Of a stretch of DNA of 32,000 nucleotides, positions 5,208-32,000 are shown piece by piece. Made by a program: the position numbers and the translations under genes. The notes under the pieces are model-generated. The model saw nothing but the letters and a program-made list of their open reading frames with translations, was not told the DNA's origin and searched no databases. Positions within the stretch are counted from its first letter, which is position 1, and every line of letters begins with the position of its first letter. The stretch is from Methanothermus fervidus DSM 2088 (GTDB lineage Archaea > Methanobacteriota > Methanobacteria > DSM-2088 > Methanothermaceae), in assembly GCA_000166095.1 (NCBI GenBank), contig CP002278.1, positions 1,050,001-1,082,000 of the forward strand. The letters are read 5' to 3'.

Positions 5208-5229
5208 GAGTAAAATTAATTATCGATAT

Positions 5230-5249
5230 GTCGGAATGAGGTTTCCGAC
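5230..5249 (+). promoter_or_regulatory. NrpR-type nitrogen operator GTCGGAA-TGAGGT-TTCCGAC (GGAA-N6-TTCC core) at the predicted amt transcription start
   Basis: The inverted repeat has 7-nt arms and a 6-nt spacer. It lies about 25 nt downstream of the TATA box and 30 nt upstream of the amt ATG. It matches the GGAA-N6-TTCC operator defined for NrpR in Methanococcus maripaludis. Confidence 0.6.
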
Positions 5250-5278: not shown

Positions 5279-6497
5279 ATGGATCCAATAAATGCAGGTG
5301 ATACTGCTTGGATGCTTGTATCTACAGCTTTAGTGTTGCTAATGACAGTTCCAGGGGTAGCAATATTCTATGCAGGACTAGTAAGAAAAGAAAATGTATT
5401 AAACACAATATTTATGTCGTTTATTGCATTTGCAATAACAAGCATTATATGGGTAATTTATGGATTCCCACTGGCTTTTGGCCAAGACATAAATGGAATA
5501 ATAGGAGCTCCAGTAAATATTTTGACGAATGGTCTTAACACCAATTCAACACACACTTGCACCTACAATACCTGCATTTATCTACATAGCATTTCAATTG
5601 ACTTTTGCAGCAATAACAGTGGCATTAATATCCGGTGCAGTTGTAGAAAGAATGAAATTTTCAGCATGGATGATATTCGTAGCATTATGGGTAAGCCTCG
5701 TCTACGTACCAATAGCACATTGGGTCTGGGGCGGAGGATTCCTATCAAAATTAGGTGCACTTGACTTTGCAGGAGGTACTGTAGTACATATAAATTCAGG
5801 TATTGCAGCTCTAGCGCTAGCATTATTACTAGGTAAAAGGAAGGATACAAGGTTGTTACCTCATCACCTTGGATATGCAGCAATAGGTGCTGCACTACTA
5901 TGGTTTGGATGGTTTGGATTTAATGCAGGGTCAGCGTTGACAGCAGGTGGACTTGCAGCATCAGCATTTTTAGTAACTAATACAGCAACTGCAGCTGCAA
6001 TGATTTCATGGGTAATTTTAGATTACCTAAAAACAGGTAAACCAACATTACTAGGGGCATTGTCAGGTATAGTAGCAGGTCTTGTAGCTATAACACCAGC
6101 TGCAGGTTTCGTTACAGTTCCAGCAGCTATCATAATAGGTTTAGTTACAAGTGTATTCTCATACTTTGCAGTGTCTTACCTCAAACCAAAGCTAGGATAC
6201 GACGATGCACTTGATGTATTTGGTATACATGGTGTTTCAGGTATATGGGGATCAATAGCAACAGGTCTGTTTGCAGCTCCATTCATAAACCCATTAGGTA
6301 AAGGACTGTTCTACGGTAATCCAAGTCAAGTGCTTATACAACTTTTAGCTGTAGCAACTGTACTTGTATATTCCTTTGTAGTTACTTTAATAATAGGTAA
6401 ATTAATAGACATAACCATAGGACTACGTGTATCTGAAAAAGAAGAAATAGAAGGACTAGATACAAACCTCCATGAAGAAACCGGATACAGATTATGA
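5279..6497 (+). pseudogene. amt: Ammonium transporter Amt, split by a 1-nt frameshift near 5526-5545
   Basis: ORF 5279..5764 gives a good Amt N-terminus up to ...[10 protein letters not shown] and then degenerates. ORF 5529..6497, one frame over, gives the rest ([65 protein letters not shown]). Removing one A from cttAAca would restore [14 protein letters not shown]. Confidence 0.85.
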
Positions 6498-17903: not shown

Positions 17904-18460
17904 ATGATAAAAATGAATTTTAAGAGAGAAGTAATAAGGCAAACAATACATGCTTCGGGAGCATGGTTTATTTTACTTGAAAATTTTTTTCCAAATTATT
18001 TAATTGGATCAATAGCCTTACTTTTTAGCTTAATTGGGTATTTCATTTGGTATTTAGATAGAAGAGTATATTTAAGCTTTATATCTAAAATTTTGAGAAC
18101 ATGTAGAAGAAATAAAAAAGACAAGGGATTTATTTATTTTTTTATAGGGATTGGACTAACTTTCCTTTTATTTAATAATAAAGATATTATAAATGCTGCA
18201 ATTATAGTTCTATGTTTTGGAGATGCCCTATCTACAATAGTTGGTAGATTTTATGGAAAACATCCTTTTCTATTTGGGGAAAAAACATGGGAGGGATTCT
18301 TAACATTTTTATTCACATCTTTTTTTTGACAATGATAATACTTGACCCAATAAGAGCATTTATTGCAGCATTGGTGGGCGCATTGGCAGAAAATCTTCCA
18401 CTGGAAGATAATATAACGATACCTCTTTTTGTTGGCATTGCTTTGAGCTACTCCTCATAG
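17904..18460 (+). pseudogene. Polyprenol/dolichol kinase-like CTP-transferase-family membrane protein, split by a frameshift in a T8 run (18320-18327)
   Basis: The ORF to 18329 carries GDALSTIVGRFYGKH...KTWEGF. The frame starting at 18329 continues with a typical C-terminus (AFIAALVGALAENLPLEDNITIPLFVGIAL) and stops at 18458-18460. A 1-nt change in the T8 run joins the two parts. Confidence 0.7.
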
Positions 18461-18623
18461 AGTTTCCTACTTCATCAAGCTTCATCAAGAAAAAATATAG
18501 TCCTAAGTAGGGCATTCTCCCAAACAGACAATCAAAGCTACTCCACTCTTCAACAATACATGAATTTCATTTAGATTTATCATGAAAATTTAGGTTTTTT
18601 CTAGATATTATTGCATTTTGGAC
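18445..18623 (+). repeat. Intergenic repeat, copy 1: module E (GAGCTACTCCTCATAGAG...ATAGTCCTAAGTAGGG) plus a diverged module L1 (TTTTTTCTAGATATTATTGCATTTTGGAC, 18595-18623)
   Basis: It shares GAGCTACTCCTCATAG with 30201-30216 and 25061-25072. It shares ATAGTCCT[A/G]AGTAG with 25689-25701. Its L1 segment matches 25148-25176 and 30433-30461. Confidence 0.7.
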
Positions 18624-18649
18624 AAAAAAGAAATTAAAAAATAAGAAAA

Positions 18650-21600
18650 TCATTTCTCCGGCCTTCTCAATAGATATCCTGCTGCTATTAATGCAATCAA
18701 TATTATAACTCCGATTATTCCTGCAAATGGCACTGATGATGGACTTCCAATTCCTTTAGACACTGGTGTAATCTCATATGCTTTACCTGCTGCAGCACCT
18801 GTAATTCCTGCTTTACCTGTAGCACCTGATTCTGATGAGGATTTACTTGCAGCTCCAGAAGCTTGAGCTGCTCCTCTTGCACCAACTTCACCACCAACTC
18901 TACCTGAAGGACCTGAAATTCCTGGTGAAACTCCCCTTGTTGCTGCAGTTCCAATTCCTACTCTTCCTAATGCAGTTGGAGCTCCTAGTTGTGATGGTGC
19001 TCCTGGAATTGAAGGTTGTGGTGTAGTTGTTGGAATTCCAGGGACTGAAGGTTGTGGTGTTGTTGGAGCTCCTGGGATTGAAGGAGCAAATGCAGCATTT
19101 TTTGTTGCTATATATAGCTGAGATCTTACTGAATTTAATAGATTTGGATTTACATAGTTTAATGCCCATCTTATCATAGCTATATTTCCACAACTGCAAT
19201 CACAGCATGCTGGTCCATATCTGGCTATTAGAGCTGCCCATCTATTCATGAGGAATCTCATTGTATTCGCATCTAATTTTAATCGATTTTGATGTGCTAA
19301 GGTTAACAATGTGCCTATCCAATGAATCTGATCAAATGGATTGTTGTTAAGCCAGTTTGAAATGCCTAAATTATATTTATCTCTTAAATACACATCTATG
19401 AATTCCTTATACACGTCACTACTAATTTCTCCTGGAACTGTAGTCTGCCAAATTTTCAGAGATTCAATGAATGTTGAAATCCTATAAGCTCCTGCCTGGC
19501 CTTTACTCATCAATGCTTTAATAAATTCTGGATTGAAATATCTCGTTCTGAGATCTCTTGCAATATAATCACTTAAAGAAAGTATTTCTGGATTAAATTT
19601 ATTAGAAGTTATAGCAATCCTAATTTTTGGAGTTTCACCTGTTAATACTCTTATTGTCATTGCCAATCCACCTAAATAACTTGCCATAGCATCATTTTCT
19701 GCAACGCCAACTACATATGTACTTCTTCCTTGATATATACCTGAAACTCCGCTCAATAAATCTTTAAATAAGTCTGTATTCTTCTCACCCCAGGTAGTCT
19801 CTGAATAGAAATTACTCATCCTATTTATGAAGATATTTGATAAATCTGTCTCGTTTTTCCAGGTCCATGGTTGATCTATAGCTTCTTTTATGCCAGTTCC
19901 ATATCCTCCAGCAGGTGGGCCCACTATCCTTAATATTGCATAATTTCCTGCTTTTTCAGGTTCTACTCCTGATGCTATATATTTTTGAACAGATTCTAAC
20001 CAATGTTTAGCTACATAATTTTGATCTATTGGATCATCGCCTTTTACTAAAAGTTTTAGATCAACTAATGGTTTCACTGCCGCATCTAATGCCTTTACTA
20101 TTGTATCATTATATTGTCTTGCTATTGTATTATAAGATGCTGCAAGAGCTAATCTAAATGCACGATCAAGTAATACTGCAACCTGTCCATAAGCATCTCT
20201 GAATAAACCACTAATCATGACAATTGCATCGATTCTAGGCCTATTTAGAGTTGTTAGTGGTGTTAATTTAATACCAGAGACTCTTCCTCCTGCTGCCCAG
20301 GTTGGCTCCACACCTAACAATCTTAAAACAAATGAAACCATTGCTCCATCGTCTCTAGCTACATCAACTCCAAATATAACGACAGCCAGTTTTTCTGGCG
20401 GCTTTTCATATTCTTTTAATGCTAAATCAGCAATCTTTTTTCCTAATTCATATGCAGATTGTGTTGGTATCAATGTTGGATCTGTTGCATAGAAGTTCTT
20501 TCCAGTTGGTAAGACATTAGGATTAACAATAGGATCTCCACCAATCTGTGGAGCAACGTATCCACCATTTAAAACATTTAACAATGAATTTAATTCAGAA
20601 TTAAAACTTTGTTTCAATTTGTCGATGAGATCTTTTCCTAATTCTAATTTCTTTGTAATATTTTGTGAAACTGTGATATTTTTTCCTAACAATATGTCTT
20701 TTATCCATGCCTTCACTTGGTTATAAAGTTCATCAAACATCTCAGGTGTTATATTTTCATATGAAATTCCTTTTTCCTGTGCCAATAACCTTATAATAGA
20801 TGGATTGTCAACTCCACCATCTATACTTAACATTGAAGCTACAGTTTCAGCTATTTCGTCTGCAGTCCATTCTTTTCCAAATGTATGTAATCCATAGGGC
20901 ATCAATGTTGTTTCAATTTTAATTAAGTAATCTGAGCATGCTTTGATTAATTCTTCATCGCTTAAATTAGTATTTATTTCAATTTTAGATCTCTCTATTA
21001 ATTTCTTTATATCCTGTATATATGCCTTTTTGAGATTTTCATCTATAGCTTTTTTATAATTTTCTAATAATGTTTTAAGATTTAATAAGTCTCCGTATAA
21101 TCCTGACAACTTCATTGGAGGTGTTAAGTAATCTATTATTACCCCATAACCTCTTCTTTTTATTAATAATCCATCAGCCACGTTATCGACTCTGTATAGA
21201 TGAATGTTAGGTGTATCTCCAATAACTATATCTGGGAAATCAAAATCTAGTAATGCTGTTTGCTTTCTAGGAAGATGTTGATAAGTTGTGTCTACACCAA
21301 TGTGAATCATTGCATCTGCATTAAATTCTTTATTTATCCAAGCATAGAATGCGAGATATTGGTGATGTGGAGGAAGTATCAACGCATGTAACAAAGCATC
21401 TGGATTTCCTTCGTAACCTAATATTGGTTCTGGCCCAATGAATACATTTCCAATAATAATTCCAGGTATAACAATATATTTTGTTCCATTTTTAACTATA
21501 GTCATCAGATTGCCTGGAGGCTCTCCCCAACCTGCAAGTCCTGTAATATTTAACAGCATGAACTCTTTTTTCATCCTATAGAATTCTTCCCATGTGCTCG

Positions 21601-23461
21601 TGCCATTTATTATTGATCTCAATGTGCTTACAATTTTATCCAGTATTTCTAATCCTCTTTGTGATTTATTAGGACACATCTTTATACAATCTCTCATTTC
21701 TTTATACCATTTGTCAAGGACTTTTGTTGCAGTGCTGAGAATACCCGGATCCTTTTTACTATAATTCAGAGCAAATTTTATTATTTCTTCTATATATCCA
21801 AGAGGACCTTCCACAACATACTTTTGAGCTATTGGATTTAAACTGCTAAACCATCGTTTATATTTCTCTGCTTCCCACAATATCGAATTATTAGCAAGTT
21901 TTTCAAGTTCTCCTGGTGCCCATGGTGCCACATTTATGCCTTTAGTTCTTAAAATTTCAACAAATTCTTCAACATTTGGTATTTTGTCAATTGTATATCC
22001 TGCTTCCTTTAATTTGTTAAGTATGTTAATGATAGATTCTGGAAGATTTAAATAACTAGTTCCTATGTTCCATTTTCCTACACCATTCTCATATATAATT
22101 GCAATCTTTTTATCTTTATTTGGTTTAATTTTCAATTGTAACCATTTTTCAACTCTAGAAACAACTTTAGATACTCTTTCATCAATTACAGAATATGAAC
22201 TCAATTCACAACCAGTTAAAGGATCTACACGTTTATCTAGTGCTGCAATAGCAATAGGCTCTATCAGTCCCTGTGATTCTGGGAACACTAATTGCCCTGC
22301 TATATCGTCTCTACTCCATGGTGTTAAGCCATCATCAGAAATTAACCAATCTTTAACACTTCTACTTTCAATTTGAATTATTTTTATAACAGGAATATTT
22401 AGACGTTGTAATAATGCCACAACATTTTTTGAGGCTGGTCCTCCAAGTAAGTAAGTATGTGGTGCTAAAATTATATCTACAACTGGTTTTACAGAATCTG
22501 GATTTGATTCATACTCCTTTACAGACTTTGCGGTTGTGAAAAATTCAACAATGCCTGCATATGTTTCATAACCATATCTAGCAACAACAGGTATTACATT
22601 GTAACCTTTAGTTGTCAATTTCTCAATTAATGAATCAATTCCTGCTGTACCTCCTAGTGCCACATAACTATCTAATTCTATAATTCCAACAGTTGGTTTT
22701 TGAGGATTTAATGGATAATCTTTGAAATATTCTGTTAAATTATTATAAAATTTTCCATTTCTGTAAATTACATGCCGTGAAAACACTTTAACCTCGTCAT
22801 ATTTTACATACACAGGTTTTTTGTTGTATTTCGCCCACATATCTATTGCACAAAGTATTAAATTCTTATCATTCTCTGTACTTGGATAACAATAATATGA
22901 ATACAATTTTGCCCATTTTTGTATTTGTGGATATTTATTTACATATTGGCTTAACATCGTTAGAGGATTGTCAGAAATTTGAGTATAAGCACTGACATTG
23001 TATATATCCTGATCAGGAATTCCTTCAAATATTTTCTTACCATCAATCTGAGACAATTTTACAGAATCAACGCCTTCAGGACAACGTAAATGCACAAAAA
23101 GTTTGTCATTTGTTAAGACTCCTGGACTTTTCAATGTATTAACAAGTTTTGTATAGGTTTCCATAGTATGACCAATTGATTTTACAATGATAATATCTGA
23201 ACTTTTTATCATTGCTGTTAAGTCATCTGAAGACATTTTACTTATCTGTTCACCAGTCCTAACAGTGATATTGAATTTGTCTTTATATTGAGGATACTCT
23301 TCATAAATTTTGTATGTTGCTTCAACCGAATGTCTTGCATAGTGAGGTGGATTTAAAATTAATATGTTTATTTTTTCATGATCTGTAGTATTCTCTGCGG
23401 CTGCAGTCCCTAATAAGGAGAAAATCAGTAGAAATGCTATTAGAATAATTGTTCTTCTCAT
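18650..23461 (-). CDS. CobN / Mg-chelatase H family protein (1603 aa) with an N-terminal signal peptide and a C-terminal Pro/Thr-rich linker, Gly/Ala/Ser-rich tract and transmembrane anchor
   Basis: CobN-family similarity runs along most of the length (e.g. HALILPPHHQYLAFYAWI, IHIGVDTTYQHLPRK, NGGYVAPQIGGDPIVNPNVLPTGKNFYATDP, ISGLFRD, EWLPG-like regions). The start is set at the ATG at 23461, which follows GGAGGG at 6 nt and gives MRRTIILIAFLLIFSLLGTAAAENTT. The C-terminus is ...VPFAGIIGVIILIALIAAGYLLRRPEK. Confidence 0.85.
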   Translation of the reverse strand: MRRTIILIAFLLIFSLLGTAAAENTTDHEKINILILNPPHYARHSVEATYKIYEEYPQYKDKFNITVRTGEQISKMSSDDLTAMIKSSDIIIVKSIGHTMETYTKLVNTLKSPGVLTNDKLFVHLRCPEGVDSVKLSQIDGKKIFEGIPDQDIYNVSAYTQISDNPLTMLSQYVNKYPQIQKWAKLYSYYCYPSTENDKNLILCAIDMWAKYNKKPVYVKYDEVKVFSRHVIYRNGKFYNNLTEYFKDYPLNPQKPTVGIIELDSYVALGGTAGIDSLIEKLTTKGYNVIPVVARYGYETYAGIVEFFTTAKSVKEYESNPDSVKPVVDIILAPHTYLLGGPASKNVVALLQRLNIPVIKIIQIESRSVKDWLISDDGLTPWSRDDIAGQLVFPESQGLIEPIAIAALDKRVDPLTGCELSSYSVIDERVSKVVSRVEKWLQLKIKPNKDKKIAIIYENGVGKWNIGTSYLNLPESIINILNKLKEAGYTIDKIPNVEEFVEILRTKGINVAPWAPGELEKLANNSILWEAEKYKRWFSSLNPIAQKYVVEGPLGYIEEIIKFALNYSKKDPGILSTATKVLDKWYKEMRDCIKMCPNKSQRGLEILDKIVSTLRSIINGTSTWEEFYRMKKEFMLLNITGLAGWGEPPGNLMTIVKNGTKYIVIPGIIIGNVFIGPEPILGYEGNPDALLHALILPPHHQYLAFYAWINKEFNADAMIHIGVDTTYQHLPRKQTALLDFDFPDIVIGDTPNIHLYRVDNVADGLLIKRRGYGVIIDYLTPPMKLSGLYGDLLNLKTLLENYKKAIDENLKKAYIQDIKKLIERSKIEINTNLSDEELIKACSDYLIKIETTLMPYGLHTFGKEWTADEIAETVASMLSIDGGVDNPSIIRLLAQEKGISYENITPEMFDELYNQVKAWIKDILLGKNITVSQNITKKLELGKDLIDKLKQSFNSELNSLLNVLNGGYVAPQIGGDPIVNPNVLPTGKNFYATDPTLIPTQSAYELGKKIADLALKEYEKPPEKLAVVIFGVDVARDDGAMVSFVLRLLGVEPTWAAGGRVSGIKLTPLTTLNRPRIDAIVMISGLFRDAYGQVAVLLDRAFRLALAASYNTIARQYNDTIVKALDAAVKPLVDLKLLVKGDDPIDQNYVAKHWLESVQKYIASGVEPEKAGNYAILRIVGPPAGGYGTGIKEAIDQPWTWKNETDLSNIFINRMSNFYSETTWGEKNTDLFKDLLSGVSGIYQGRSTYVVGVAENDAMASYLGGLAMTIRVLTGETPKIRIAITSNKFNPEILSLSDYIARDLRTRYFNPEFIKALMSKGQAGAYRISTFIESLKIWQTTVPGEISSDVYKEFIDVYLRDKYNLGISNWLNNNPFDQIHWIGTLLTLAHQNRLKLDANTMRFLMNRWAALIARYGPACCDCSCGNIAMIRWALNYVNPNLLNSVRSQLYIATKNAAFAPSIPGAPTTPQPSVPGIPTTTPQPSIPGAPSQLGAPTALGRVGIGTAATRGVSPGISGPSGRVGGEVGARGAAQASGAASKSSSESGATGKAGITGAAAGKAYEITPVSKGIGSPSSVPFAGIIGVIILIALIAAGYLLRRPEK
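18996..19087 (-). repeat. About 33-36-nt tandem repeat (about 2.5 units) inside the CobN-like gene, encoding PQPS[IV]PG[AI]PTT
   Basis: On the plus strand, GGTGCTCCTGGAATTGAAGGTTGTGGTGT, TGGAATTCCAGGGACTGAAGGTTGTGGTGT and TGGAGCTCCTGGGATTGAAGG follow one another. The protein reads PSIPGAPTTPQPSVPGIPTTTPQPSIPGAP. Confidence 0.6.
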
Positions 23462-23543
23462 AGATTTCCCTCCATCAATAAAATGTTTAACATTAGTAAT
23501 AATATTAAAATTTTTTTTCATTAACAATTAAAATAAATTAAAA

Positions 23544-23639
23544 TTAACTTCAATAACGAAGAGAGAGGTAAATTTCAAGTGTAATAGCTAGAGAGAATTA
23601 AGGAGAGGTAGTTATAAGTTATAACTTATAAGTTATAAG
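23544..23639 (+). repeat. Intergenic repeat, copy A of the core module L2 (…TTCAATAA.GAAGAGAGAGGTAAATTTCAAGTGTAATAGCTAGAGAGAATTAAGGAGAGGTAGTTATAAGTTATAACTTATAAGTTATAAG)
   Basis: It is nearly identical to 25179-25279 and 30582-30681, with only a few substitutions. It contains the perfect 20-bp palindrome TTATAAGTTATAACTTATAA (23612-23631), which is also four [G/C]TTATAA heptads. It sits between the cbiB stop and the CobN-like gene start. Confidence 0.85.
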
Positions 23640-24515
23640 CGAGGAAAATAATGCTGAAACTATAGCCAAATACAAAATTATGGAAACTACAGCCAGCCTG
23701 ACAGCCTTATCTATCGAATTTTCATTTAACTTCCCGTCGTCTCCTAAAACATAATGGTCTGGCTTTTCTAATTTTGCTTGTAATGCACCAGCAGTGGCCG
23801 CCATTGGATAACCTGCATTTGGACTGTCAGGGACCTTAGAATCTCTTAACATTATTTTAAAGCTATTTCTCCAATCCATATTTAAAAGTAGTGAAGCAAA
23901 GACTATTAACATTCCAGTGATCCGTGCAGGTATAAAATTAAGTATATCATCTAATTTCGCTGGGAACCATCCAATTTCTCTATACTCTTTATTCTTATAT
24001 CCAATCATTGCATCAAGTGTATTCACAACCCTATAAAATACTGCACCATATATCCCAAAAAACAATGCATAAAAAATCGGAGACACTACAGAATCCACAA
24101 TATTTTCACTTAAACTCTCTATGGCCGCTGAAATAATCTGTGTCCTTGATAATTCACTTGTATCTCTACTTACAATTTCAGATACTTTTTTGCGTGCAGA
24201 TTCTATATCATCCAACCTCTTTTTCACTTCTAATGGATATTTAATAAGTAATTTTATTGAAAACGTAGAAGATAAAATTATTGAATAAAGAATTATTTGT
24301 AAAAACATTGGAAGAAAAGCTATGAAATAAAGTGGAATTATATAAAGTATAGAAGTGAGGAAAGTGATTATAACACCTGAAATTTTCTTATTTGGTAATC
24401 TTACATATAAGAAATCTATAGTTTTACCAATCCAAACAACAGGATGAATTCTAGTTGGAAGTTCTCCAATTAAATCCAATATTATCGCAAAAAATAAAAT
24501 AATTAAAAAATTCAT
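23619..24515 (-). CDS. cbiB: Adenosylcobinamide-phosphate synthase (CbiB/CobD)
   Basis: 298-aa membrane ORF with CbiB signatures (HPVVWIGK, DTSELSRTQIISAAIESLSENIVDSVVSPIFY, NTLDAMIGYKN, PNAGYPMAATAGAL). Its start overlaps the upstream CYTH gene stop (ATGA, 24512-24515). Confidence 0.9.
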   Translation of the reverse strand: MNFLIILFFAIILDLIGELPTRIHPVVWIGKTIDFLYVRLPNKKISGVIITFLTSILYIIPLYFIAFLPMFLQIILYSIILSSTFSIKLLIKYPLEVKKRLDDIESARKKVSEIVSRDTSELSRTQIISAAIESLSENIVDSVVSPIFYALFFGIYGAVFYRVVNTLDAMIGYKNKEYREIGWFPAKLDDILNFIPARITGMLIVFASLLLNMDWRNSFKIMLRDSKVPDSPNAGYPMAATAGALQAKLEKPDHYVLGDDGKLNENSIDKAVRLAVVSIILYLAIVSALFSSLITYKL

Positions 24516-25060
24516 TGTTGGTGCCTTTTCTTTTCTAAATAAAGCTCAAGGTATGATCTTCTCTCAAAATTATTCTTTATATTTAATTTTTTACAAATTT
24601 TAAAGGCATGGTCCACATATTCTTTAATTTTATTTTTATTTTTTACATTCTTCTCAACTTCAATAAATTTACCAACTTTATATACATCATCAAGACAAAT
24701 CTCAAAATCTTTAAACTTGTAAACTTTTCTTTTTTTCTTTATTGTTGCTACTGCTTTGTAACCAAGGAATTTAAGTATTTCAACCATATTTTTTAAATTT
24801 TCTATACCAACTTCAACCTCTTCTCTAGTTTTACTAATTTTATCTATTTTTGGACCTTTATATGTTAAAATTATTTTAGTTTTTTCATTTTCGATCTTTC
24901 TAATTCTCAATGCTTCATCAGTCTTTGAAAAGTCTCTGTCTGGAGCATTGAAATAAATATCTTCTTGATATATTTCCTCAATTTTTTCTGCTCCTAATTT
25001 TTTTAACCTGTCTTCAATTTCTTTTAAATTATTAACATGGGCTTTCACTTCGACTTCCAT
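24512..25060 (-). CDS. CYTH-domain protein (CyaB-type class IV adenylyl cyclase / triphosphatase family)
   Basis: 182-aa ORF starting MEVEVKAHV (the ExExK motif of CYTH), with ALRIR, LTYKG, REEVEV and FIEVE strand motifs. A GAGGAG ribosome-binding site lies 6 nt upstream. Confidence 0.8.
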   Translation of the reverse strand: MEVEVKAHVNNLKEIEDRLKKLGAEKIEEIYQEDIYFNAPDRDFSKTDEALRIRKIENEKTKIILTYKGPKIDKISKTREEVEVGIENLKNMVEILKFLGYKAVATIKKKRKVYKFKDFEICLDDVYKVGKFIEVEKNVKNKNKIKEYVDHAFKICKKLNIKNNFERRSYLELYLEKKRHQQ

Positions 25061-25073
25061 GAGCTACTCCTCA

Positions 25074-25102
25074 ATTTCCATACTATTTAGTCTATTTAAA
25101 AC
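25074..25102 (-). repeat. Solitary CRISPR-repeat-like unit (SR) on the minus strand: GTTTTAAATAGACTAAATAGTATGGAAAT
   Basis: This is the reverse complement of 25074-25102. It matches the units at 30765-30794, 30829-30858 and 25311-25340. It lies in the predicted 5' UTR of the CYTH-cbiB operon and ends 13 nt before the ATG. Confidence 0.75.
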
Positions 25103-25139
25103 ATGCATGAGACGAATAATTTTCATTTTTTATTTTAAT

Positions 25140-25303
25140 ATATATAGTTTTTTCTAAGTATTATTGCGTTGGAGAGAGAAAATCAATTTCAATAAGAAGA
25201 GAGGGAGGTAAATTTCAAGTGTAATAGCTAGAGAGAATTAGGGAGAGATAGTTATAAGTTATAACTTATAAGTTATAAGTGAAATAGAGATAGACTTATC
25301 AAG
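25140..25303 (+). repeat. Leader-like repeat, copy B (module L1 at 25140-25178 plus core module L2 at 25179-25303)
   Basis: It is collinear with 30425-30463 plus 30582-30705 and partly with 23544-23639 and 18595-18623. It starts with a TATATATA box (25140-25147) readable on both strands. It contains the 20-bp palindrome at 25252-25271. Confidence 0.85.
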
Positions 25304-25310
25304 CAAGATA

Positions 25311-25340
25311 TTCTAAGAATAGACTAAATAGTATGGAAAT
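25311..25340 (+). repeat. Solitary CRISPR-repeat-like unit (SR), 5' third diverged: TTCTAAGAATAGACTAAATAGTATGGAAAT
   Basis: The 3' 21 nt are identical to the unit at 30774-30794. The unit is followed by AGAAAAAAGGTGA (a ribosome-binding site) and the ATG at 25360. Confidence 0.7.
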
Positions 25341-25359
25341 AGAAAAAAGGTGATAGTTT

Positions 25360-25605
25360 ATGCCTAAAGCAACGTTAGCTACAGGAATTATAGCAATAGG
25401 TGCTGGTCTAGCAATAGGTTTTGCAGGTTTAGGAGCTGGAGTAGGACAGGGAGTAGTTGGATCATCCTCAGTTGGAGCAATAGTTGAAGATCCTGGATCA
25501 TTTGGTAAAAGCCTCCTATTTACAGCTCTACCAGAAACTCACACAATCTTTGGATTCATTATTGCTATAATGTTGATAATGTTTTCAGGAATGATGGGCG
25601 GATAA
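25360..25605 (+). CDS. A/V-type ATPase proteolipid (subunit K/c)-like protein with a single two-helix hairpin, located outside any ATPase operon
   Basis: 81-aa ORF with a Gly/Ala-rich first helix (GAGLAIGFAGLGAGVGQGVVG) and a second helix carrying a conserved acidic residue (ALPETHTIFGFIIAIML). An AGGTGA ribosome-binding site lies 7 nt upstream. Confidence 0.7.
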   Translation: MPKATLATGIIAIGAGLAIGFAGLGAGVGQGVVGSSSVGAIVEDPGSFGKSLLFTALPETHTIFGFIIAIMLIMFSGMMGG

Positions 25606-25750
25606 GCTACTCCTATTTTGAGCCACTCCCTACGGAGCTTCCTGATTCATAGAGAAAACTTGCCCAAAGACTATATCCCTATAGGAGATAGTCCTGAGTA
25701 GAGGTTTTCTCTCAGGTAGGCTATCTAGGGCTATCTTTTCCCTGACATCC
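25605..25750 (+). repeat. Intergenic repeat, module E copy 2 (AGCTACTCCT...CATAGAGAAAACTTGCCCAAAGACTAT...ATAGTCCTGAGTAGAGGTTTTCTCTCAGG)
   Basis: It shares CATAGA[G/A]AAAACTTGCCCAAA[G/A]ACTAT and TTTTCTCTCAG with 30213-30251. It shares ATAGTCCT.AGTAG with 18497-18510. It begins at the last base of the proteolipid gene stop codon. Confidence 0.7.
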
Positions 25751-25802
25751 AAACTTTTTGGGCTAAATTATTATATAAACAAAAATAAAAGCGGTGAGAA
25801 CT

Positions 25803-26582
25803 ATGATCTATTATATTATCTATTTTATTACCGGTCTTCTAGCAGGAGTTGTAGGTGGACTTTTGGGCACAGGTGGTTGTGTCATAATGATGCCAGTAAT
25901 TCGTTTTGGTTTCCATTTTGATCCGGCTATTGCGGTAGGAACAACTTTAACTGCTGTGGTTTTTACTGCCGGTTTCGGTGCCTTTCAACATATCAAAATG
26001 AAAAATGTTGATAAAGAAACTGCGCTTTTAACCGGTTATTCAGGAATTTTAGGAGTAATTATCGGCTCAATTATTTTTGGCTACATCAAAAATCATGGTA
26101 ACCTGATTGATTTGATTGTTGGTATCGCTTTCATTGTTGTTTCTTTACGAATGCTTTATGAGGGATTATTCGCCAAAATTAAGCAAGTTGAACAAGTGCA
26201 AAAAATTCCAGGGACGCCTCTCTCTAAAACGATTATAGGTTCAGTTATTGGCACTTTAACTGGTATTATTGGTTTAGGAGGAGGCTATGCTCTTGTCCCA
26301 TCGTATACTTTATTCTTGAGATCTCCGATAAAGTTGGCTATCGGTACTTCTATGGCTGCTTTTGTCTGGATAGCTTTGGTTGGTGCCATCTACAAAATAT
26401 TCCAGGGAGTTGTCAATATTCCAGCAGCGATTGCTTTGGGCATTGGTGCAGCGATTGGGGCGATTTATGGAGCAAAATTAGTAGCGAAATTTAAATCCAA
26501 TGTCTTAAAAATCTTGTTTGGTCTTTTATTTACCTATGTCTCTTTGAAATATATATTAATTTACTTTGGCATCGTTATTTAA
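25803..26582 (+). CDS. TauE/SafE family sulfite-exporter-like permease
   Basis: Polytopic membrane ORF with the internally duplicated TauE pattern (GLLAGVVGGLLGTGGCVIMMP and GTLTGIIGLGGGYALVP). The ATG at 25803, with GGTGA 5 nt upstream, is preferred over the GTG at 25794. Confidence 0.85.
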   Translation: MIYYIIYFITGLLAGVVGGLLGTGGCVIMMPVIRFGFHFDPAIAVGTTLTAVVFTAGFGAFQHIKMKNVDKETALLTGYSGILGVIIGSIIFGYIKNHGNLIDLIVGIAFIVVSLRMLYEGLFAKIKQVEQVQKIPGTPLSKTIIGSVIGTLTGIIGLGGGYALVPSYTLFLRSPIKLAIGTSMAAFVWIALVGAIYKIFQGVVNIPAAIALGIGAAIGAIYGAKLVAKFKSNVLKILFGLLFTYVSLKYILIYFGIVI

Positions 26583-26872
26583 CCACTACAGAGATAAATA
26601 AAGTGAATAGGATGCGACTCTAGGAATAAAACTTTGTAGGAACCGAGATGTTAAGAGGTAACTAATCCACAAATGAGTAAAAAATTGAAAGTGAGGGCAT
26701 GATGGTGAAATCAGATTCAAAGACCTCTTCTGTCCTTCATTTATTTTTACCATTATTCAAGCCGGACTTACAACCTCTAGCGGTCCTGCAATGGTTTCAT
26801 ATATTAAAGATCTGTGTGTAAAACAGAACAAATGGCTTGATAAAAAACATTAAAGAGGATTAAAATTGAACA

Positions 26873-26978
26873 AGAGTAAAAGAAGAGTTGTGTATATTTT
26901 TAAAACAAATGCTAGTTTTGTTCATCTATATAAATACTTTTCTTATTTCTTAATCCCCGATAGAGTGGAAATCTGTTT
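26873..26978 (+). repeat. Promoter-like repeat module P, copy 1 (…CATCTATATAAATACTTTTCTTATTTCTTAATCCCCGATAGAGTGGAAATCTGTTT), upstream of the KaiC-like gene
   Basis: It is collinear with 30466-30576, differing by a few substitutions and one short indel. It contains the strong TATA box TATATAAATA (26927-36; second copy at 30525-34). Confidence 0.8.
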
Positions 26979-27016
26979 AATTCTGAAAAAATATTAAAAT
27001 AAAAAAATTTATTAGT

Positions 27017-27772
27017 ATGGGTAGACAAAACATGAAAAACATGAAAAAAGTAAAAACCGGAATTCCTGGAATGGATGATATATTACATGGAGGAATACCT
27101 GAAAGAAATATAGTTTTGTTGTCTGGTGGTCCAGGCACTGGAAAAACAATATTTTGTCAGCAATTTCTATATAAAGGTGTTAAAGAGTATAATGAGCCAG
27201 GAATTTTAGTAGCATTAGAAGAGCATCCTGTACAAATCAGGGAAAATATGAAACAATTTGGGTGGGATGTTAGAGAACTTGAAGAAGAAGAAGAAAAATT
27301 TGTCATAGTTGATGCATTTACATCTGGAATAGGACGTGCTGCAAAAAGAGAAAAATATATAGTAAAGGATCCAAACGATGAAAGAGAATTAATCGATGTT
27401 TTAAGAACTGCTATAAATGATATTGGAGCTAAAAGAGTAGGAATTGATTCCGTAACTACCCTCTACATAAATAAACCAATGATGGCCAGAAAAACAGTGT
27501 TTCTATTAAAGAGAGTCATTTCCGGTTTAGGATGCACTGCTATTTTTACATCTCAAATTTCTGTTGGAGAGAGAGGATTTGGAGGCCCTGGAGTTGAGCA
27601 TGCTGTTGATGGAATTATAAGGTTAGATTTAGATGAAATAAAAGGAGAATTAAAAAGAAGTTTGATCGTTTGGAAAATGAGAGGAACCAATCATTCTTTA
27701 AAAAGACGTCCATTTGATATAACTGATAAAGGAATTTATGTACACTCAGATAAAGTATTAAAAATTAGATGA
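27017..27772 (+). CDS. KaiC-like / RecA-superfamily ATPase (single KaiC domain)
   Basis: The N-terminus is typical of KaiC/RadA-like proteins ([41 protein letters not shown], Walker A). A Walker B-like RVGIDSV and [12 protein letters not shown] are also present. Alternative starts are at 27032 and 27041. Confidence 0.85.
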
Positions 27773-27784
27773 AAGGTGTTAGTT

Positions 27785-28276
27785 ATGATTCCATTAGTGC
27801 CTACATCAAAAACTGAAATAAATAAGTTAGAACATGTTTTAGTGTTAGGAACATTGTTTAGACCCGAAATTTTGAAATTAATAAAGGATCCTAGAGAAAG
27901 AATTACCTGGGTTGAATCTTTAGCTGTTGCTTCAGGGAGCATAGCAAGAGAAAAAGCAGGGTACACTGTAAGGGAAATAGCGGAAGAATTAGGAAGAACA
28001 GAACAAACAATTAGAAAACATGTGAAGGGTGAAACAAAGGCTGGAAAATTAGTCAGAGAAACCTATAATATGATAAAAGAAGGAAAACTAGACATGTCAG
28101 AGTTGGAAGATTTTTTAGAAACTACTGTTAGAAAAGAAGAATTAGAATCAAAATTATCAAAAGTTAAAGAATTAGATAAAAAATTAGAGAAACTTAAAAA
28201 AGAAAATGAAAAACTCAACACAAAACTAGAAAAAGTCAGGGAAAAATTGGAAGAAATATTAGAGGACATAAAATAA
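27785..28276 (+). CDS. Helix-turn-helix protein with a C-terminal coiled coil
   Basis: The HTH-like segment is YTVREIAEELGRTEQTIRKHVKG. The C-terminal 60 aa are a K/E/L heptad-rich coiled coil (ELESKLSKVKELDKKLEKLKKENEKLNTKLEKVREKLEEILEDIK). The ATG at 27785 lies 6 nt after AAGGTG and 12 nt after the KaiC-like gene stop. Confidence 0.65.
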   Translation: MIPLVPTSKTEINKLEHVLVLGTLFRPEILKLIKDPRERITWVESLAVASGSIAREKAGYTVREIAEELGRTEQTIRKHVKGETKAGKLVRETYNMIKEGKLDMSELEDFLETTVRKEELESKLSKVKELDKKLEKLKKENEKLNTKLEKVREKLEEILEDIK

Positions 28277-28278
28277 TA

Positions 28279-28758
28279 TTATACGTACATTCTGTCACTT
28301 TCTTTACCTTTTTCAATATCTTCACCACATTCTTTATGTATTTTCCACAAAACATGGAGTTTTGCCTTAAACACCCTCTTTATGGTGGACATCAATTTGT
28401 CTTTACTTAAACCATCTTTATATATTACGTCTCTAACAACATAACCCTGCAATACATCGTCATTTTCCTGAATTTCAAAATCAACAAGAAATTTATTCAA
28501 TGAAAATTTTATATCCCACATAAATTCCCTACGTTCTTTCCTGTTTAAATCTCTAAGTTTTTGCACATGTTCTGGACTAACTTTCGTAGCACATCCAACA
28601 ATAATCACATCTGATTTTCCAAGAGGTTGTATGACATCCATGTAATGTCCTGGGGGACATTCAATTAAAAAATGAAAATTTGCCGATTTATCACTCATTT
28701 CTTCCTTATACATATCTTCCTCTAATAACCATTCTCTAATTTTTTCCTTGATTTCCAT
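28279..28758 (-). CDS. Conserved hypothetical cytoplasmic protein of unknown function
   Basis: 159-aa ORF with non-repetitive composition and coding-like periodicity. It is tightly packed after the 267-aa gene with a 14-nt gap. I recognise no motif with certainty. Confidence 0.55.
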   Translation of the reverse strand: MEIKEKIREWLLEEDMYKEEMSDKSANFHFLIECPPGHYMDVIQPLGKSDVIIVGCATKVSPEHVQKLRDLNRKERREFMWDIKFSLNKFLVDFEIQENDDVLQGYVVRDVIYKDGLSKDKLMSTIKRVFKAKLHVLWKIHKECGEDIEKGKESDRMYV

Positions 28759-28772
28759 ATTTTTTACACACC

Positions 28773-29576
28773 CTATGTTTTATATACTTTCAAAACAAAA
28801 TCACATACCTGATTTTCAAAATATGGTGGATCTAGTAGAATTGATTTTTTTATTTTCACAATATAAACATTGTCATCTGGTATTGAATTTAAATTTAACC
28901 AGATTACTTGCTTTTCACTTTTTACCATTGATTTTATTCTATCGTTTAAATTATAAAATTTTTCTGAATTGAAATCATTATTAGGATTTTCCACAGTATT
29001 TAAATTCCACAAAATATTACTTGCATTTGATATTAAAAAATAATTGTATTGATTAAGTTCAGAAGTAGTGACAGAAAAATGTTTTGAAATTTTTGATGGA
29101 ATAGGGCCTACTTCAGAATCTGTTTTGTTTGCATCAATCTTTATCACAACACAATCTGCAAAAAAATCACACACTACGGTTCTATTTACAACCACAACTT
29201 CTTGAGAAGAAATAGGTGGATCCTCCTTAATTACAATTTTTCCTCCATTTTTTGGATAAAGTATTAAGCTTGTGGTCGTATTTGGCAATATTTTTCCAAT
29301 TAATTCATCATAATTTTCTTTTAATTTTAAAATTTTCTTAAAAGATAAGACATTCCCACTATTTTCTTTTTTTAATCCAAGTATTACATCGCTTGAATTC
29401 CAAGTCCCATAGGTATTTACGAGAATGTCTACTGCTCCTCTTACTTGTCTCTCTAAATTAAATCTATAATATTGATCACTTGTGTTTTTTATTAAATTAT
29501 CAACTGTATTTACAGAAATTCCAAAAATAATTACGATAACTATAAGAGAAAGAAGTAAATCTGTGGATAATATCAT
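28773..29576 (-). CDS. Hypothetical protein with an N-terminal hydrophobic anchor (pilin-like / class III signal-like), Asn/Ser-rich
   Basis: 267-aa ORF with an N-terminal MILSTDLLLSLIVIVIIFGI segment and no other transmembrane helix. Its start lies 2 nt after the dedA stop, which implies an operon. Confidence 0.55.
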   Translation of the reverse strand: MILSTDLLLSLIVIVIIFGISVNTVDNLIKNTSDQYYRFNLERQVRGAVDILVNTYGTWNSSDVILGLKKENSGNVLSFKKILKLKENYDELIGKILPNTTTSLILYPKNGGKIVIKEDPPISSQEVVVVNRTVVCDFFADCVVIKIDANKTDSEVGPIPSKISKHFSVTTSELNQYNYFLISNASNILWNLNTVENPNNDFNSEKFYNLNDRIKSMVKSEKQVIWLNLNSIPDDNVYIVKIKKSILLDPPYFENQVCDFVLKVYKT

Positions 29577-29578
29577 TT

Positions 29579-30181
29579 TTAACCCCTATTTTTAGCTATA
29601 ATATAAATTATAACTATTACGATACCTATTGCAACAATATAATCAAGTTTATGAAATATTTCAACCACCGATTTCCAATGTGGACCTAATGAATAACCTA
29701 CATATGCTAACATATAACACCATGGTATAGAACCTATGAAAGTATAAATACTAAATTTTTTTAGATCCATTTTGGCTGTACCTGCAGGTAATGAAATAAA
29801 TGTTCTTACAATTGGCATTACTCTACTTATAAATACAGCCTCATGTCCATATCTTTTAAACCATTTATCAGCCATTTCAAGTTTTTTCTTTGTAATAAAA
29901 ATATATTTACCATATTTTTCCAAAAATGGTCTTCCACCTTTTATCCCAACAAAATATGCAATCCACGACCCAACTAAATTTCCTAAAGCTCCAGCCATAA
30001 CTACAAGATATAAATTCAAATTTCCTTTCCAGGCAACATAACCGCTAAAAGGCATTATAATTTCACTAGGTAGGGGAATACATGCGCTTTCAAGTACCAT
30101 AGTGAAAAAAATGCCAATATATCCTGTTGATTCTATCAGCGAGATTATAAAGTTAGCGATTGTTTCAACAATGCCTGCCAT
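29579..30181 (-). CDS. DedA / SNARE-associated family membrane protein
   Basis: DedA motifs are present (ESACIPLPSEIIMPFSGY, GALGNLVGSWIAYFVGIKGGRPFLEKYG, RVMPIVRTFISLPAG). The start is set at the ATG at 30181, preceded by GGGGTGAAGAA. The 38 codons upstream in the track ORF run through repeat module E. Confidence 0.85.
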   Translation of the reverse strand: MAGIVETIANFIISLIESTGYIGIFFTMVLESACIPLPSEIIMPFSGYVAWKGNLNLYLVVMAGALGNLVGSWIAYFVGIKGGRPFLEKYGKYIFITKKKLEMADKWFKRYGHEAVFISRVMPIVRTFISLPAGTAKMDLKKFSIYTFIGSIPWCYMLAYVGYSLGPHWKSVVEIFHKLDYIVAIGIVIVIIYIIAKNRG

Positions 30182-30200
30182 TTCTTCACCCCAATTTTTT

Positions 30201-30300
30201 GAGCTACTCCTCATAGAAAAAACTTGCCCAAAAACTATCAGTTTTCTCTCAGACATGCGATGGGGATTGTCTCGTCCCCTTTTTAGGATCTGCATGCCGA
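30201..30300 (+). repeat. Intergenic repeat, module E copy 3 (GAGCTACTCCTCATAGAAAAAACTTGCCCAAAAACTAT...TTTTCTCTCAG...)
   Basis: See the module E copies at 18445 and 25605. It contains the hairpin GGGGA-ttgtctcg-TCCCC followed by TTTTT (30262-30284). Confidence 0.7.
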
Positions 30301-30424
30301 TATATAATCTCTTAACTTATTTTTTAATCCTTTTAATGCTCCCAGGTTTAACCTTCTCAACTACCTATCAGTTTTTTTCAGCTTGTAGAAGTCATCTTGT
30401 ATGAAAAAAGTAGCATAAGGAAGT

Positions 30425-30764
30425 ATATATAGTTTTTTCTAAGTGTTATTGCGTTGGAGAAAGAAAGAGTAAAGAAGAATTTGTGTATATTTTTTTAGAA
30501 CAAGTTCTATTTTTGTACTTCATCTATATAAATACTTTTCTTATTTCTTAATCCCCGATAGAGTGGAAATCTGTTTTTTACAAAATCAATTTCAATAAGA
30601 AGAGAGAGAGGTAAATTTCAAGTGTAATAGCTAGAGAGAATTGAGAGAGGTAGTTATAAGTTATAACTTATAAGTTATAAGTGAAATAGAGATAGACTTA
30701 TTAAGTATGTTAAGACAAAACATTTTTATACTGTATCCTGCCTAAAAACAAAATAATCAGTTCG
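30425..30764 (+). repeat. Leader-like repeat, copy C: L1 (30425-30463), inserted promoter module P (30466-30576), core L2 (30582-30705), then about 59 nt of unique AT-rich sequence up to the first CRISPR-like repeat
   Basis: It is collinear with copy B apart from the insertion of module P, which is homologous to 26873-26978. The 20-bp palindrome is at 30654-30673. Confidence 0.85.
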
Positions 30765-30858
30765 GTTTTAAAATAGACTAAATAGTATGGAAATACGAAA
30801 TATTTACAACCATGTGCAAATGAAGCTGGTTTTAAGATAGACTAAATGGTATGGAAAT
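30765..30858 (+). CRISPR. Mini CRISPR-like array of two 30-nt repeats (GTTTTAAAATAGACTAAATAGTATGGAAAT and GTTTTAAGATAGACTAAATGGTATGGAAAT) and one 34-nt spacer (ACGAAATATTTACAACCATGTGCAAATGAAGCTG)
   Basis: The repeats lie at 30765-30794 and 30829-30858 with 2 mismatches and a 64-nt period. A conserved leader-like sequence precedes them. Repeat length, the GTTTTAAAA...AGAC start and the ATGGAAAT end resemble archaeal methanogen CRISPR repeats as I recall them. No cas genes are in the window. Confidence 0.5.
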
Positions 30859-31153
30859 CGAAAAGAGGCTCAAGCAATAGAAATAGAAGTATACCATATT
30901 TTTTCCTGTGTCCATTGTCTAAAAAAAGTCCTGAAAAGGAGCTTGTTGAATTAAAACAGAACGAAAATCCATAATATGTATTTGTATCAGAAAATAATAC
31001 ATGATCTACTGATACTGGTGCACTAACATTTTCTATTATAATAGAAGGTACAATAAAAGTTTCAATTCCAAATTCACGTCCATCAGAAACTCCTTTTCCA
31101 TTTAATCTAATAAAAATAACATGCTCCATCATGGCTTTCATGGTAATAACCAT
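30842..31153 (-). CDS. Hypothetical ORF, probably the frameshifted C-terminal continuation of the 31107..31832 gene
   Basis: It overlaps the upstream ORF by 47 nt in another frame. A 1-nt change in the A6 run (plus-strand T6 at 31153-31158) fuses the two. Its last six codons and stop lie inside CRISPR-like repeat 2. Confidence 0.4.
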   Translation of the reverse strand: MVITMKAMMEHVIFIRLNGKGVSDGREFGIETFIVPSIIIENVSAPVSVDHVLFSDTNTYYGFSFCFNSTSSFSGLFLDNGHRKKYGILLFLLLEPLFDFHTI

Positions 31154-31832
31154 TTTTTAGGCAATTTAACAAAATATTTGTGTTGTTATGTGTTGTATAT
31201 TCCTCATAAGGACATTTTTTGATTAAAAATGGAGAAATTGCATTTTTATAATAAGAAACATTTTTTAATCCTTTTTCAGATAAATATGCTGCCAAAGAAT
31301 CTCCATAATATATTTTAGATTTATCATGATGCAGATTTCCATATTTTCTTAGTTTTATAAAAGGTAACGGGTCTGGTAAACCTTCAATTGAAAATTCTTT
31401 TGTAATGGTCTCTTGATGTTTCACGTTTCCCTCTTCAACATCTAATGAAAAGTTTATATCAATTAAAAAAGGATCATTACTATTTGTTTTCAAATAATTT
31501 ATAATACAATTTGATTTAATACCTTTATTTTCATATTTTTTAGATATTTCGTTTATTTTTGATTCTATTATTTTTTTTGCGCTATCTGAACTATTTGTAT
31601 AGCTGACATTGTTATCAATGACATTATATGCCATATCTTCAATAACTTTCCTTGCAATTATTGGTACATTGTTTTTAATATCATCCACCGTATAAATAAC
31701 ATTTTTAGAGGATTTTTTGTTGAGAATTATTGAATTCTCCATATTTATAAACGAAAAAACAGCTGAAAGTAATAAAATTAAAGGTATTATTAGTAGAAAA
31801 GTCATATTACTTATTATATAACCTCTTTCCAA
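31107..31832 (-). CDS. Hypothetical protein with a class III (prepilin-like) signal sequence
   Basis: The N-terminus MERGYIISNMTFLLIIPLILLLSAVF has a short charged leader, then RG[Y], then a hydrophobic helix, as in archaeal type IV pilin-like proteins. The remainder is Asn/Lys-rich. Confidence 0.55.
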   Translation of the reverse strand: MERGYIISNMTFLLIIPLILLLSAVFSFINMENSIILNKKSSKNVIYTVDDIKNNVPIIARKVIEDMAYNVIDNNVSYTNSSDSAKKIIESKINEISKKYENKGIKSNCIINYLKTNSNDPFLIDINFSLDVEEGNVKHQETITKEFSIEGLPDPLPFIKLRKYGNLHHDKSKIYYGDSLAAYLSEKGLKNVSYYKNAISPFLIKKCPYEEYTTHNNTNILLNCLKNGYYHESHDGACYFY

Positions 31833-31923
31833 ATTTTCACCCCTTTTTTTAAATATTTTAAGTTTTGAAATAATTTTTTATGAAATTATAAATATTTAAA
31901 ATAAAGTAAATAAATTTATAGTT

Positions 31924-32000
31924 ATGAAAATAATTAAATTAGATCCCTATAATCCAAAAACAAAAGTTTTAAATAAAGTCAGGAGAATGTTAGCCGAAGG
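31924..32000 (+). CDS. Sua5/YrdC/YwlC-family (threonylcarbamoyl-AMP synthase-like) protein, N-terminal fragment running off the window
   Basis: MKIIKLDPYNPKTKVLNKVRRMLAEG resembles the usual Sua5/YrdC N-terminus (MKI..id....... ....a...l..GG). Only 25 codons are visible. Confidence 0.4.
   Translation, partial: MKIIKLDPYNPKTKVLNKVRRMLAE

Follow-up and report, generated by a model that had tools for sequence, protein, structure and literature searches.

The window analysed here is a 32,000-nucleotide (nt) stretch of the Methanothermus fervidus DSM 2088 chromosome (contig CP002278.1, positions 1,050,001 to 1,082,000). Exact look-ups of four of its proteins agree with this source, namely ADP77914, ADP77915, ADP77909 and the product of a 103-aa open reading frame, whose cluster includes M. 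fervidus entries. Near its right end lies a genuine CRISPR array, which consists of two repeats and one spacer behind a leader whose parts recur elsewhere on the chromosome. The array is unannotated, and orphan or minimal CRISPR arrays with a multicopy leader are already known. On balance, we consider it an orphan mini-array, one of several scattered leader-repeat units, which most likely persists in DSM 2088 as a relic. The leader, the array and the signals around them are as follows.

30424-30764, plus strand: leader, 341 nt, 26% GC, made up of four modules (A, B, C and D)
30424-30466, plus strand: module A, which recurs at 25139-25181 (95% identity)
30465-30581, plus strand: module B, of which 30465-30576 recurs at 26872-26978, with 58 nt identical
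30582-30701, plus strand: module C, which recurs at 25179-25299 (97%) and 23560-23639 (97.5%)
30702-30764, plus strand: module D, found once in the window; its last 14 nt recur before the first repeat of a second array
30723-30730, plus strand: candidate archaeal TATA box TTTTTATA, 34 nt 5' of the first repeat, with a putative promoter function
30765-30794, plus strand: first repeat (R1), GTTTTAAAATAGACTAAATAGTATGGAAAT
30795-30828, plus strand: spacer of 34 nt, unique, ACGAAATATTTACAACCATGTGCAAATGAAGCTG
30829-30858, plus strand: second repeat (R2), GTTTTAAGATAGACTAAATGGTATGGAAAT
30899-30904, plus strand: run of six T, a candidate archaeal termination signal, 41 nt 3' of R2

Repeats, repeat family and leader

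According to the sequence comparison, R1 and R2 are identical at 28 of 30 positions, and R2 carries the substitutions A8G and A20G. The coordinates of both repeats, their two differences and the unique 34-nt spacer had been given in an original prediction made for this stretch, and all of them were confirmed. No repeat match arose by chance in 100 shuffles of the window. Except for CGAAA, which follows both R1 and R2, the similarity stops at the borders of the 30-nt repeat, so that neither unit belongs to a longer duplicated segment. An origin by chance, or by a segmental duplication unrelated to CRISPR, could appeal to the presence of only two copies and to the common CGAAA; set against the empty shuffles, the sharp repeat borders and the identical core in about 900 repeats of cas-linked arrays, its probability is practically negligible. 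The period from R1 to R2 is 64 nt, which falls within the range of the same repeat family (63-74 nt with a mode of 67, from 880 repeat-to-repeat intervals).

The same repeat was found elsewhere, both in long arrays and beside cas operons. Its 22-nt core is present in a Methanobrevibacter genome (metagenome-assembled genome L001), where the array has degenerate terminal repeats, and in 22 metagenomic stretches, in which the arrays reach 113 repeats; GCTTTGAAATAGACTAAATAGTATGGAAAT is the reading of 900 of the 902 repeat copies in the metagenomic arrays. In contig L028, the genes cas7-cas5-cas3-cas4-cas1-cas2 are followed by a 166-nt leader and then by the array, with the repeats oriented as in the window, and contig L026 carries a five-repeat array beside cas6, one repeat of which is identical to R1 at all 30 positions. 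The repeat RNA is predicted to be unstructured, as is typical of archaeal Cas6 substrates of this kind. Because the core occurs in long arrays adjoining cas7-cas5-cas3-cas4-cas1-cas2 and cas6, the repeat is assigned, on the strength of its sequence, to the 30-nt unstructured type I-B family of Methanobacteriales, which the 64-nt period fits as well. The repeat in cas-linked arrays, the leader orientation as in L028 and a second unit 1.7 kb away thus bear out the earlier reading of an orphan CRISPR mini-array behind a multicopy leader. The repeat core was absent from the viral contig collection. Rfam gave no match for the whole window at gathering scores, and for 18200-32000 at E values up to 5 it gave chance-level matches only, with no CRISPR-DR family among them; no tRNA was found by a tRNA scan.

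Transcription is predicted to start near 30751-30756, downstream of the candidate TATA box. Recurrence of the leader modules had been proposed for four other places in the window; the copies near 25140-25303, 23544-23639 and 26873-26978 stand, whereas 18595-18623 matches the leader at 67% over 43 nt and was not counted as a leader copy. The TATATAAATA box is present at 30525-30534, as had been stated, and lies within module B. Each copy of module C holds a perfect 20-nt palindrome, TTATAAGTTATAACTTATAA (30654-30673, 25252-25271 and 23612-23631), which is composed of four GTTATAA-like units and could be a protein-binding site. The module C pattern had no match in the metagenomes searched, and inspection revealed no evident sequence shared between this leader and those of L028, L025, L032, L017, L026 and L014. 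A bacterial promoter scan of the locus was uninformative, the host being archaeal.

Second array and scattered leader-repeat units

The units are spread over about 9 kb of the chromosome and comprise a convergent pair of arrays with two repeats each, three fragments of the leader and two solitary repeats. Their positions, together with the genes that touch them, are listed below.

23560-23639, plus strand: lone copy of module C with the palindrome TTATAAGTTATAACTTATAA, between cobD and cobN
25074-25103, minus strand: solitary repeat (variant of 29 nt); immediately after it come TGAGGAGTAGCTC and the start codon (ATG, 25060) of the CYTH gene
25139-25299, plus strand: leader fragment flanked by the two solitary repeats, with modules A and C but neither B nor D
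25311-25340, plus strand: solitary repeat whose 5' part is degenerate (TTCTAAGAATAGACTAAATAGTATGGAAAT); it ends 19 nt short of the start codon (ATG, 25360) of an ATP-synt_C paralog
26872-26978, plus strand: lone copy of module B with the TATATAAATA box, 39 nt 5' of a KaiC-like gene at 27017
30842-31832, minus strand: frameshifted gene of unknown function; R2, read as its reverse complement, supplies the last codons and the stop
31924-32000, plus strand: start of sua5, whose end lies about 514 nt beyond the window, within the terminal repeat of the second array
about 32498-32607 (contig L002, 1-115), minus strand: second two-repeat, one-spacer array, with repeats at about 32498-32593, convergent with the first

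The second array lies about 1.7 kb downstream of the first and is seen in contig L002 (run SRR072735), which is identical to the window over an overlap of 1,250 nt and extends 607 nt past the window end. After a 14-nt leader end, it has repeat GTTTTAAAATAGACTAGGTAGTATGGAAAT, then a spacer of 36 nt and finally repeat CTTTTAAAATAGACTAAATAGTATGGAAAT. Its first repeat carries two substitutions, and its leader end equals the last 14 nt of module D; as L002 shows only these 14 nt, the full identity of the second leader to the first is presumed. Between the two mini-arrays, which point towards each other, lies a 1.7-kb block with two divergent genes, the gene of unknown function (329 aa) and sua5, and both genes have their stop codon inside a terminal repeat. 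On the side of the first array, the stop codon of the minus-strand open reading frame 30842-31153 lies inside R2, which agrees with the overlap between R2 and the 3' end of a minus-strand frame reported earlier, and no plus-strand open reading frame follows R2. The gene to which this frame belongs is split in DSM 2088 into 30842-31153 and 31107-31832, the frameshift appearing in two independent read assemblies too, and it is intact in relatives (320-329 amino acids, aa); its product has a hydrophobic N-terminus. The array has a VTT-domain gene, the gene of unknown function and the housekeeping, chromosomal gene sua5 as neighbours.

The 36-nt spacer of the second array matches contig L007 at 5199-5234 with 35 of 36 positions identical (E = 2e-13; also in L008 and L009). 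This protospacer lies in a PLPC-like gene of 297 aa in environmental Methanothermus strains, and the 5' flank of the match is TTA. The PLPC-like gene family is rare, with eight relatives; its 90% cluster contains no DSM 2088 member, and no viral relative of the gene was found. The gene adjoins sua5 only in relatives without the second array, at exactly the position of that array. Since a 35/36 match of a spacer of family-typical length between two full repeats argues for a genuine spacer acquisition in the lineage, the second spacer is best explained, as far as its sequence tells, by Cas1-Cas2 acquisition; a remnant left by deletion, which the co-linearity with the relatives' gene would allow, is less likely. 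For the spacer of the first array, no protospacer was found in the viral contigs (searched with two 22-mers per spacer), in the surrounding 32.6 kb or in any of the other loci retrieved. The second spacer had no match in the viral contigs either, and no self-target of the two spacers was detected at a 62% identity cutoff in the 32.6 kb, where shuffled spacers reached 20-23 of 34-37 positions. In the relatives, the intergenic sequence TTTTATATAGACT between sua5 and the PLPC-like gene (L007 5394-5409) resembles the first 13 nt of the repeat and may be a decayed solitary repeat; its alignment score is borderline, 33 versus a shuffle maximum of 30 from shuffles scored on a different target.

Comparison between strains showed how these units vary. 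Contigs of run DRR667206 share 98.6% identity with the window across 4.66 kb; for those of SRR24635347 the figure is 98.7% across 3.37 kb. The DRR667206 strain carries both mini-arrays with the identical two spacers and one single-nucleotide polymorphism, and its arrangement upstream of CYTH is the same as in the window. In the environmental strains SRR24635347, SRR28876213 and SRR25293641, the array site is a single repeat, into which, shortly behind its start, an element with inverted ends of 26 nt (GRGCTACCCCCTACGGAGCTTCCTAC) is inserted; when the flanks of this element are joined, CAG followed by GTTTAAAATAGACTAAATAGTATGGAAAT is restored. After sua5, the environmental strains have the PLPC-like gene and a type III restriction-modification system and no array, and before CYTH an unrelated element replaces the repeat and the leader fragment. 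No spacer gain was seen among the window, DRR667206, SRR24635347, SRR28876213 and SRR25293641; the units vary by rearrangement and disruption, without spacer turnover.

The dispersed repeats and one-spacer arrays might be more than a relic of immunity and serve as genome-remodelling tools between sibling strains. In such a scheme, CRISPR cutting of a neighbouring or incoming block, namely the PLPC-like gene with the type III restriction-modification system, would be repaired by recombination between a solitary repeat at the site and an array repeat, so that the target would be lost and the array moved in. Intergenic solitary repeats would then be landing pads that fix the ends of deletions and array relocations. 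We regard this proposal as rather improbable.

The solitary repeats may be read in another way. The two point outward from the leader fragment 25139-25299 and end 13 nt (CYTH) and 19 nt (ATP-synt_C paralog) before the start codons of two divergent genes; the copy at 25074-25103 on the minus strand was absent from the original prediction, and that at 25311-25340 is exact only over its 3' 23-25 nt. Leader modules and solitary repeats could therefore have been co-opted as portable promoter and 5' untranslated region cassettes of host genes, with the array as a by-product: module B would drive the KaiC-like gene, and module A with the solitary repeats (TTTTAAAATA box) would drive CYTH and ATP-synt_C. 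Such a role would suit the short distances to the start codons, the Shine-Dalgarno-like motif after each solitary repeat, the placement of module B (TATATAAATA) 39 nt before the KaiC-like start with 58 nt identical to the leader copy, and the identical arrangement upstream of CYTH in the DRR667206 strain. However, the unrelated element before CYTH in SRR24635347 indicates that the repeat is dispensable there, R2 has no plus-strand open reading frame behind it to be driven, and TATA-like strings are abundant in AT-rich archaeal intergenic DNA. Co-option as the main explanation of the locus therefore seems improbable.

cas genes and the fate of the array in DSM 2088

The absence of cas genes near the array, claimed earlier for its surroundings, holds for the entire 32-kb window. 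A 166-aa helix-turn-helix (HTH) protein encoded at 27776-28276, beside the KaiC-like ATPase, had a weak PADLOC match to the HTH region of Csa3 (E = 1.6e-4), which is probably not meaningful because the protein has no CARF domain. With this weak HTH-region match as the only one in a PADLOC search of the neighbouring proteins, it was not accepted as a cas gene.

A complete type I-B operon is present in two close relatives, the strains of DRR667206 and SRR24635347. Contig L042 of run DRR667206 (9.67 kb, 28% GC) encodes cas6-cas8 (602 aa)-a 104-aa protein-cas7-cas5-cas3-cas4-cas1-cas2. The relatives' Cas6, protein P0020 on L042, was found by a search with the cognate Cas6 from L026, and its 90% cluster comprises two sequences, the other of which comes from SRR24635347 (L043 1-1984). 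No M. fervidus Cas6 is named among the best 120 relatives of the L026 Cas6, and none occurs in ten opened clusters, whose representatives come only from run or metagenome assemblies. The relatives' Cas1 also forms a two-member 90% cluster, and no M. fervidus Cas1 was found among its best 120 relatives (down to 64% identity). All other DSM 2088 proteins that were looked up are present under their NCBI names in the relatives' clusters. Given that the Cas6 cluster contains no DSM 2088 member and that no M. fervidus Cas1 was seen, while the other proteins looked up are there, we infer, indirectly, that DSM 2088 is without the type I-B operon of its relatives. The M. fervidus DSM 2088 genome paper lists "CRISPR repeats 0" (PMC3035299), and a literature search for cas genes in M. 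fervidus yielded nothing useful.

With cas genes in the relatives and no counterpart found in the strain, the most likely reading of the array is an ordinary remnant of immunity and not an element of a new kind; in DSM 2088 it is perhaps still transcribed, but most likely neither processed nor used. The leader-repeat units would have been made and maintained in a cas-positive ancestor, in which Cas1-Cas2 would have inserted the spacer at the leader side. Transcription from a promoter in module D, within the final 60 nt of the leader, would cover the leader end, both repeats and the spacer between them, and extend as far as the run of six T (30899-30904). Cas6 would then cut 8 nt before each repeat end and release a CRISPR RNA (crRNA) about 64 nt long, whose 5' tag would be AUGGAAAU, and this crRNA would guide Cascade in a cas-bearing cell, as in any type I-B array. 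Later, the units may have become scattered and truncated as dispersed repeats and leaders recombined and another short element inserted itself. Repeated recombination among the units is suggested by the scatter of leader modules and solitary repeats, by the convergence of the two arrays and by genes that end inside repeats; this history is a proposal, and the promoter and the Cas6 cut site are predicted by analogy with the repeat family.

Several observations weigh against a relic. The acquisition of a spacer since the split from the 98.6%-identical strains argues for recent cas activity, and the 95-97% identity of the leader copies could mean continuing selection. The array 5' of cas6 in L042 and L043 has a second, related repeat, GTTTAAATCAGACTATTTTAAGGGTTTGAAA, which has the 5' half in common with the window repeat (GTTT(T)AAA..AGACTA) and differs from it in the 3' half; a search for GTTTAAATCAGACTATTTTAAGGGTTTGAAA in the window showed that it is absent. 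In addition, the hit tables conceal the names of non-representative cluster members, which makes absence from them weak evidence, and the search for cas genes of DSM 2088 covered the window and the Cas6 and Cas1 clusters, so that a different or divergent module may lie elsewhere.

If such a module existed elsewhere in the 1.24-Mb DSM 2088 genome, as cas genes do in Methanocaldococcus jannaschii, the locus could be a working mini-array that is transcribed, processed by Cas6 and used for interference; the immune memory would then be divided among many arrays of a single spacer, every one behind a leader of its own. An intact leader with a TATA-like box 34 nt before R1, two full-length repeats, and identical mini-arrays in the cas-bearing DRR667206 strain are all compatible with continued function, and the real protospacer of the second spacer in the Methanothermus gene pool implies that acquisition was recent. 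CRISPR-Cas is, moreover, present in nearly all hyperthermophilic archaea. What makes a working array unlikely is that no DSM 2088 sequence occurs in the relatives' Cas6 cluster and none was seen for Cas1, that neither the best 120 relatives of the cognate Cas6 nor the 10 opened clusters include an M. fervidus Cas6, that no spacer was gained between strains, and that R2 and the first repeat of the second array carry two substitutions each. The genome paper also reports no array of detectable size (PMC3035299).

A regulatory function was considered as well. The original prediction suggested a resemblance to the CreTA modules of haloarchaea, which pair the CreA mini-array with the CreT toxin RNA, and in an array of this or another regulatory type a crRNA-like RNA would repress a host or toxin gene via partial complementarity. 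The likeness is one of layout only, namely two repeats, one spacer and an own promoter, which is here a candidate. Unlike CreTA, the array lies outside a cas operon and has no toxin-like small gene adjacent to it, its best spacer match in the 32.6 kb is no better than those of shuffled spacers, so that no partial self-target emerged, and neither spacer matches the relatives' cas operon. CreA needs Cascade, and neither Cascade genes nor an ortholog of the relatives' Cas6 or Cas1 were detected for the strain. The suggestion was thus not upheld, and a CreTA-like or other regulatory array appears very improbable. Anti-cas spacers were ruled out, since the longest exact match of either array spacer to the L042 and L043 cas operon is at most 11 nt.

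Known minimal arrays, and minor features of the window

The locus shares with the type I-B arrays of Methanobacteriales (L028, L026 and L001) the 22-nt core, the ATGGAAAT 3' end, a repeat length of 29-30 nt and the range of spacer lengths. As in L028, an AT-rich leader stands upstream and the repeats have the same orientation. It differs from these arrays in comprising only two repeats around a single spacer, in a 32-kb stretch free of cas genes and in a strain for which no Cas6 or Cas1 ortholog was detected; its leader is unrelated in sequence to that of L028 and is multicopy and mosaic.

Methanocaldococcus jannaschii has cas genes, long arrays and about 18 dispersed leader-repeat loci. Its long-repeat/short-repeat (LR/SR) elements, described by Bult and co-workers in 1996, reportedly include sites with only one or two short repeats. 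The match to LR/SR proposed earlier holds for the layout, which alone was compared: by analogy, a long conserved segment is followed by few short repeats at several sites. One full leader was seen here, the second unit shares at least 14 nt of the leader end and the repeat, and three copies are partial. The locus thus departs from M. jannaschii, with its cas genes and long arrays, in that the leader occurs mostly as fragments.

According to passages of PMC8616872, orphan type I-F (CRISPR4) arrays persist in Escherichia coli lineages after cas loss (Almendros et al. 2016), and the spacers of these arrays target the lost cas genes. The M. fervidus arrays are likewise small and stand without a cas operon that relatives keep, the loss in DSM 2088 being presumed; they differ in that their spacers do not match the cas operon and that one of them matches a chromosomal gene that varies between strains. 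The same source describes mini-CRISPR arrays and solitary repeat units carried by viruses (Faure et al. 2019; Medvedeva et al. 2019, in PMC8616872). These resemble the present ones in having one spacer between two repeats or a lone repeat, in having repeats equal to those of complete systems, and in the dependence of any activity on Cas proteins encoded elsewhere. Unlike virus-borne units, those of DSM 2088 are chromosomal, lie among sua5, cobD and cobN with no viral genes nearby, and have a repeat that is absent from the viral contigs.

These units correct the record for M. fervidus, a reference hyperthermophile, in that the genome paper lists no CRISPR and the chromosome carries several leader-repeat units, all of which fall below the three-repeat threshold of standard array finders. 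They do not change the current understanding of how CRISPR works. If the operon loss is true, DSM 2088 could be set beside its close relative with cas genes as a natural pair for following the fate of arrays, leaders and solitary repeats after the loss of cas genes. The second spacer is a clear archaeal case of targeting within a genus, directed at a chromosomal gene that varies between strains, and is relevant to the proposal that CRISPR restricts gene flow among close relatives. Added interest comes from the presence of the same mini-arrays in a cas-bearing sibling strain and from the neighbouring spacer directed against a gene that elsewhere occupies the array's own position.

A second dispersed element (GAGCTACTCC...CATAGAGAAAACTTGCCC...GGTTTTCTCTCAGG) was also observed in the window at 18442-18545, 25606-25765, 30200-30256 and 25062-25074, and in relatives at L007 7136-7161, L033 1-32 and L037 1-105. 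In the relatives, a version of the GAGCTACTCC element with 26-nt inverted ends splits the array-site repeat, and another copy sits before CYTH. From its sequence and distribution it looks like a small mobile element; tested as a structured RNA, it gave a non-significant fold z-score of -1.16. An apparent resemblance between the GAGCTACTCC element and spacers from the second repeat family in the relatives was dropped, the alignment scores being at shuffle level.

Finally, two gene arrangements in the window deserve mention. The ATP-synt_C gene at 25360-25605 (81 aa) is a paralog of the A-type ATPase proteolipid gene (ADP78032); the first 50 nt or so have diverged, and the remainder is nearly identical. 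Contig L010 fuses the genuine ATPase gene with the sequence downstream of the window's paralog, which is probably an assembly artefact across the shared part. The ammonium transporter gene, directly 5' of the P-II gene, is split into the open reading frames 5279-5764 and 5529-6497, which cover profile positions 1-82 and 80-399, and represents a frameshift or a pseudogene.

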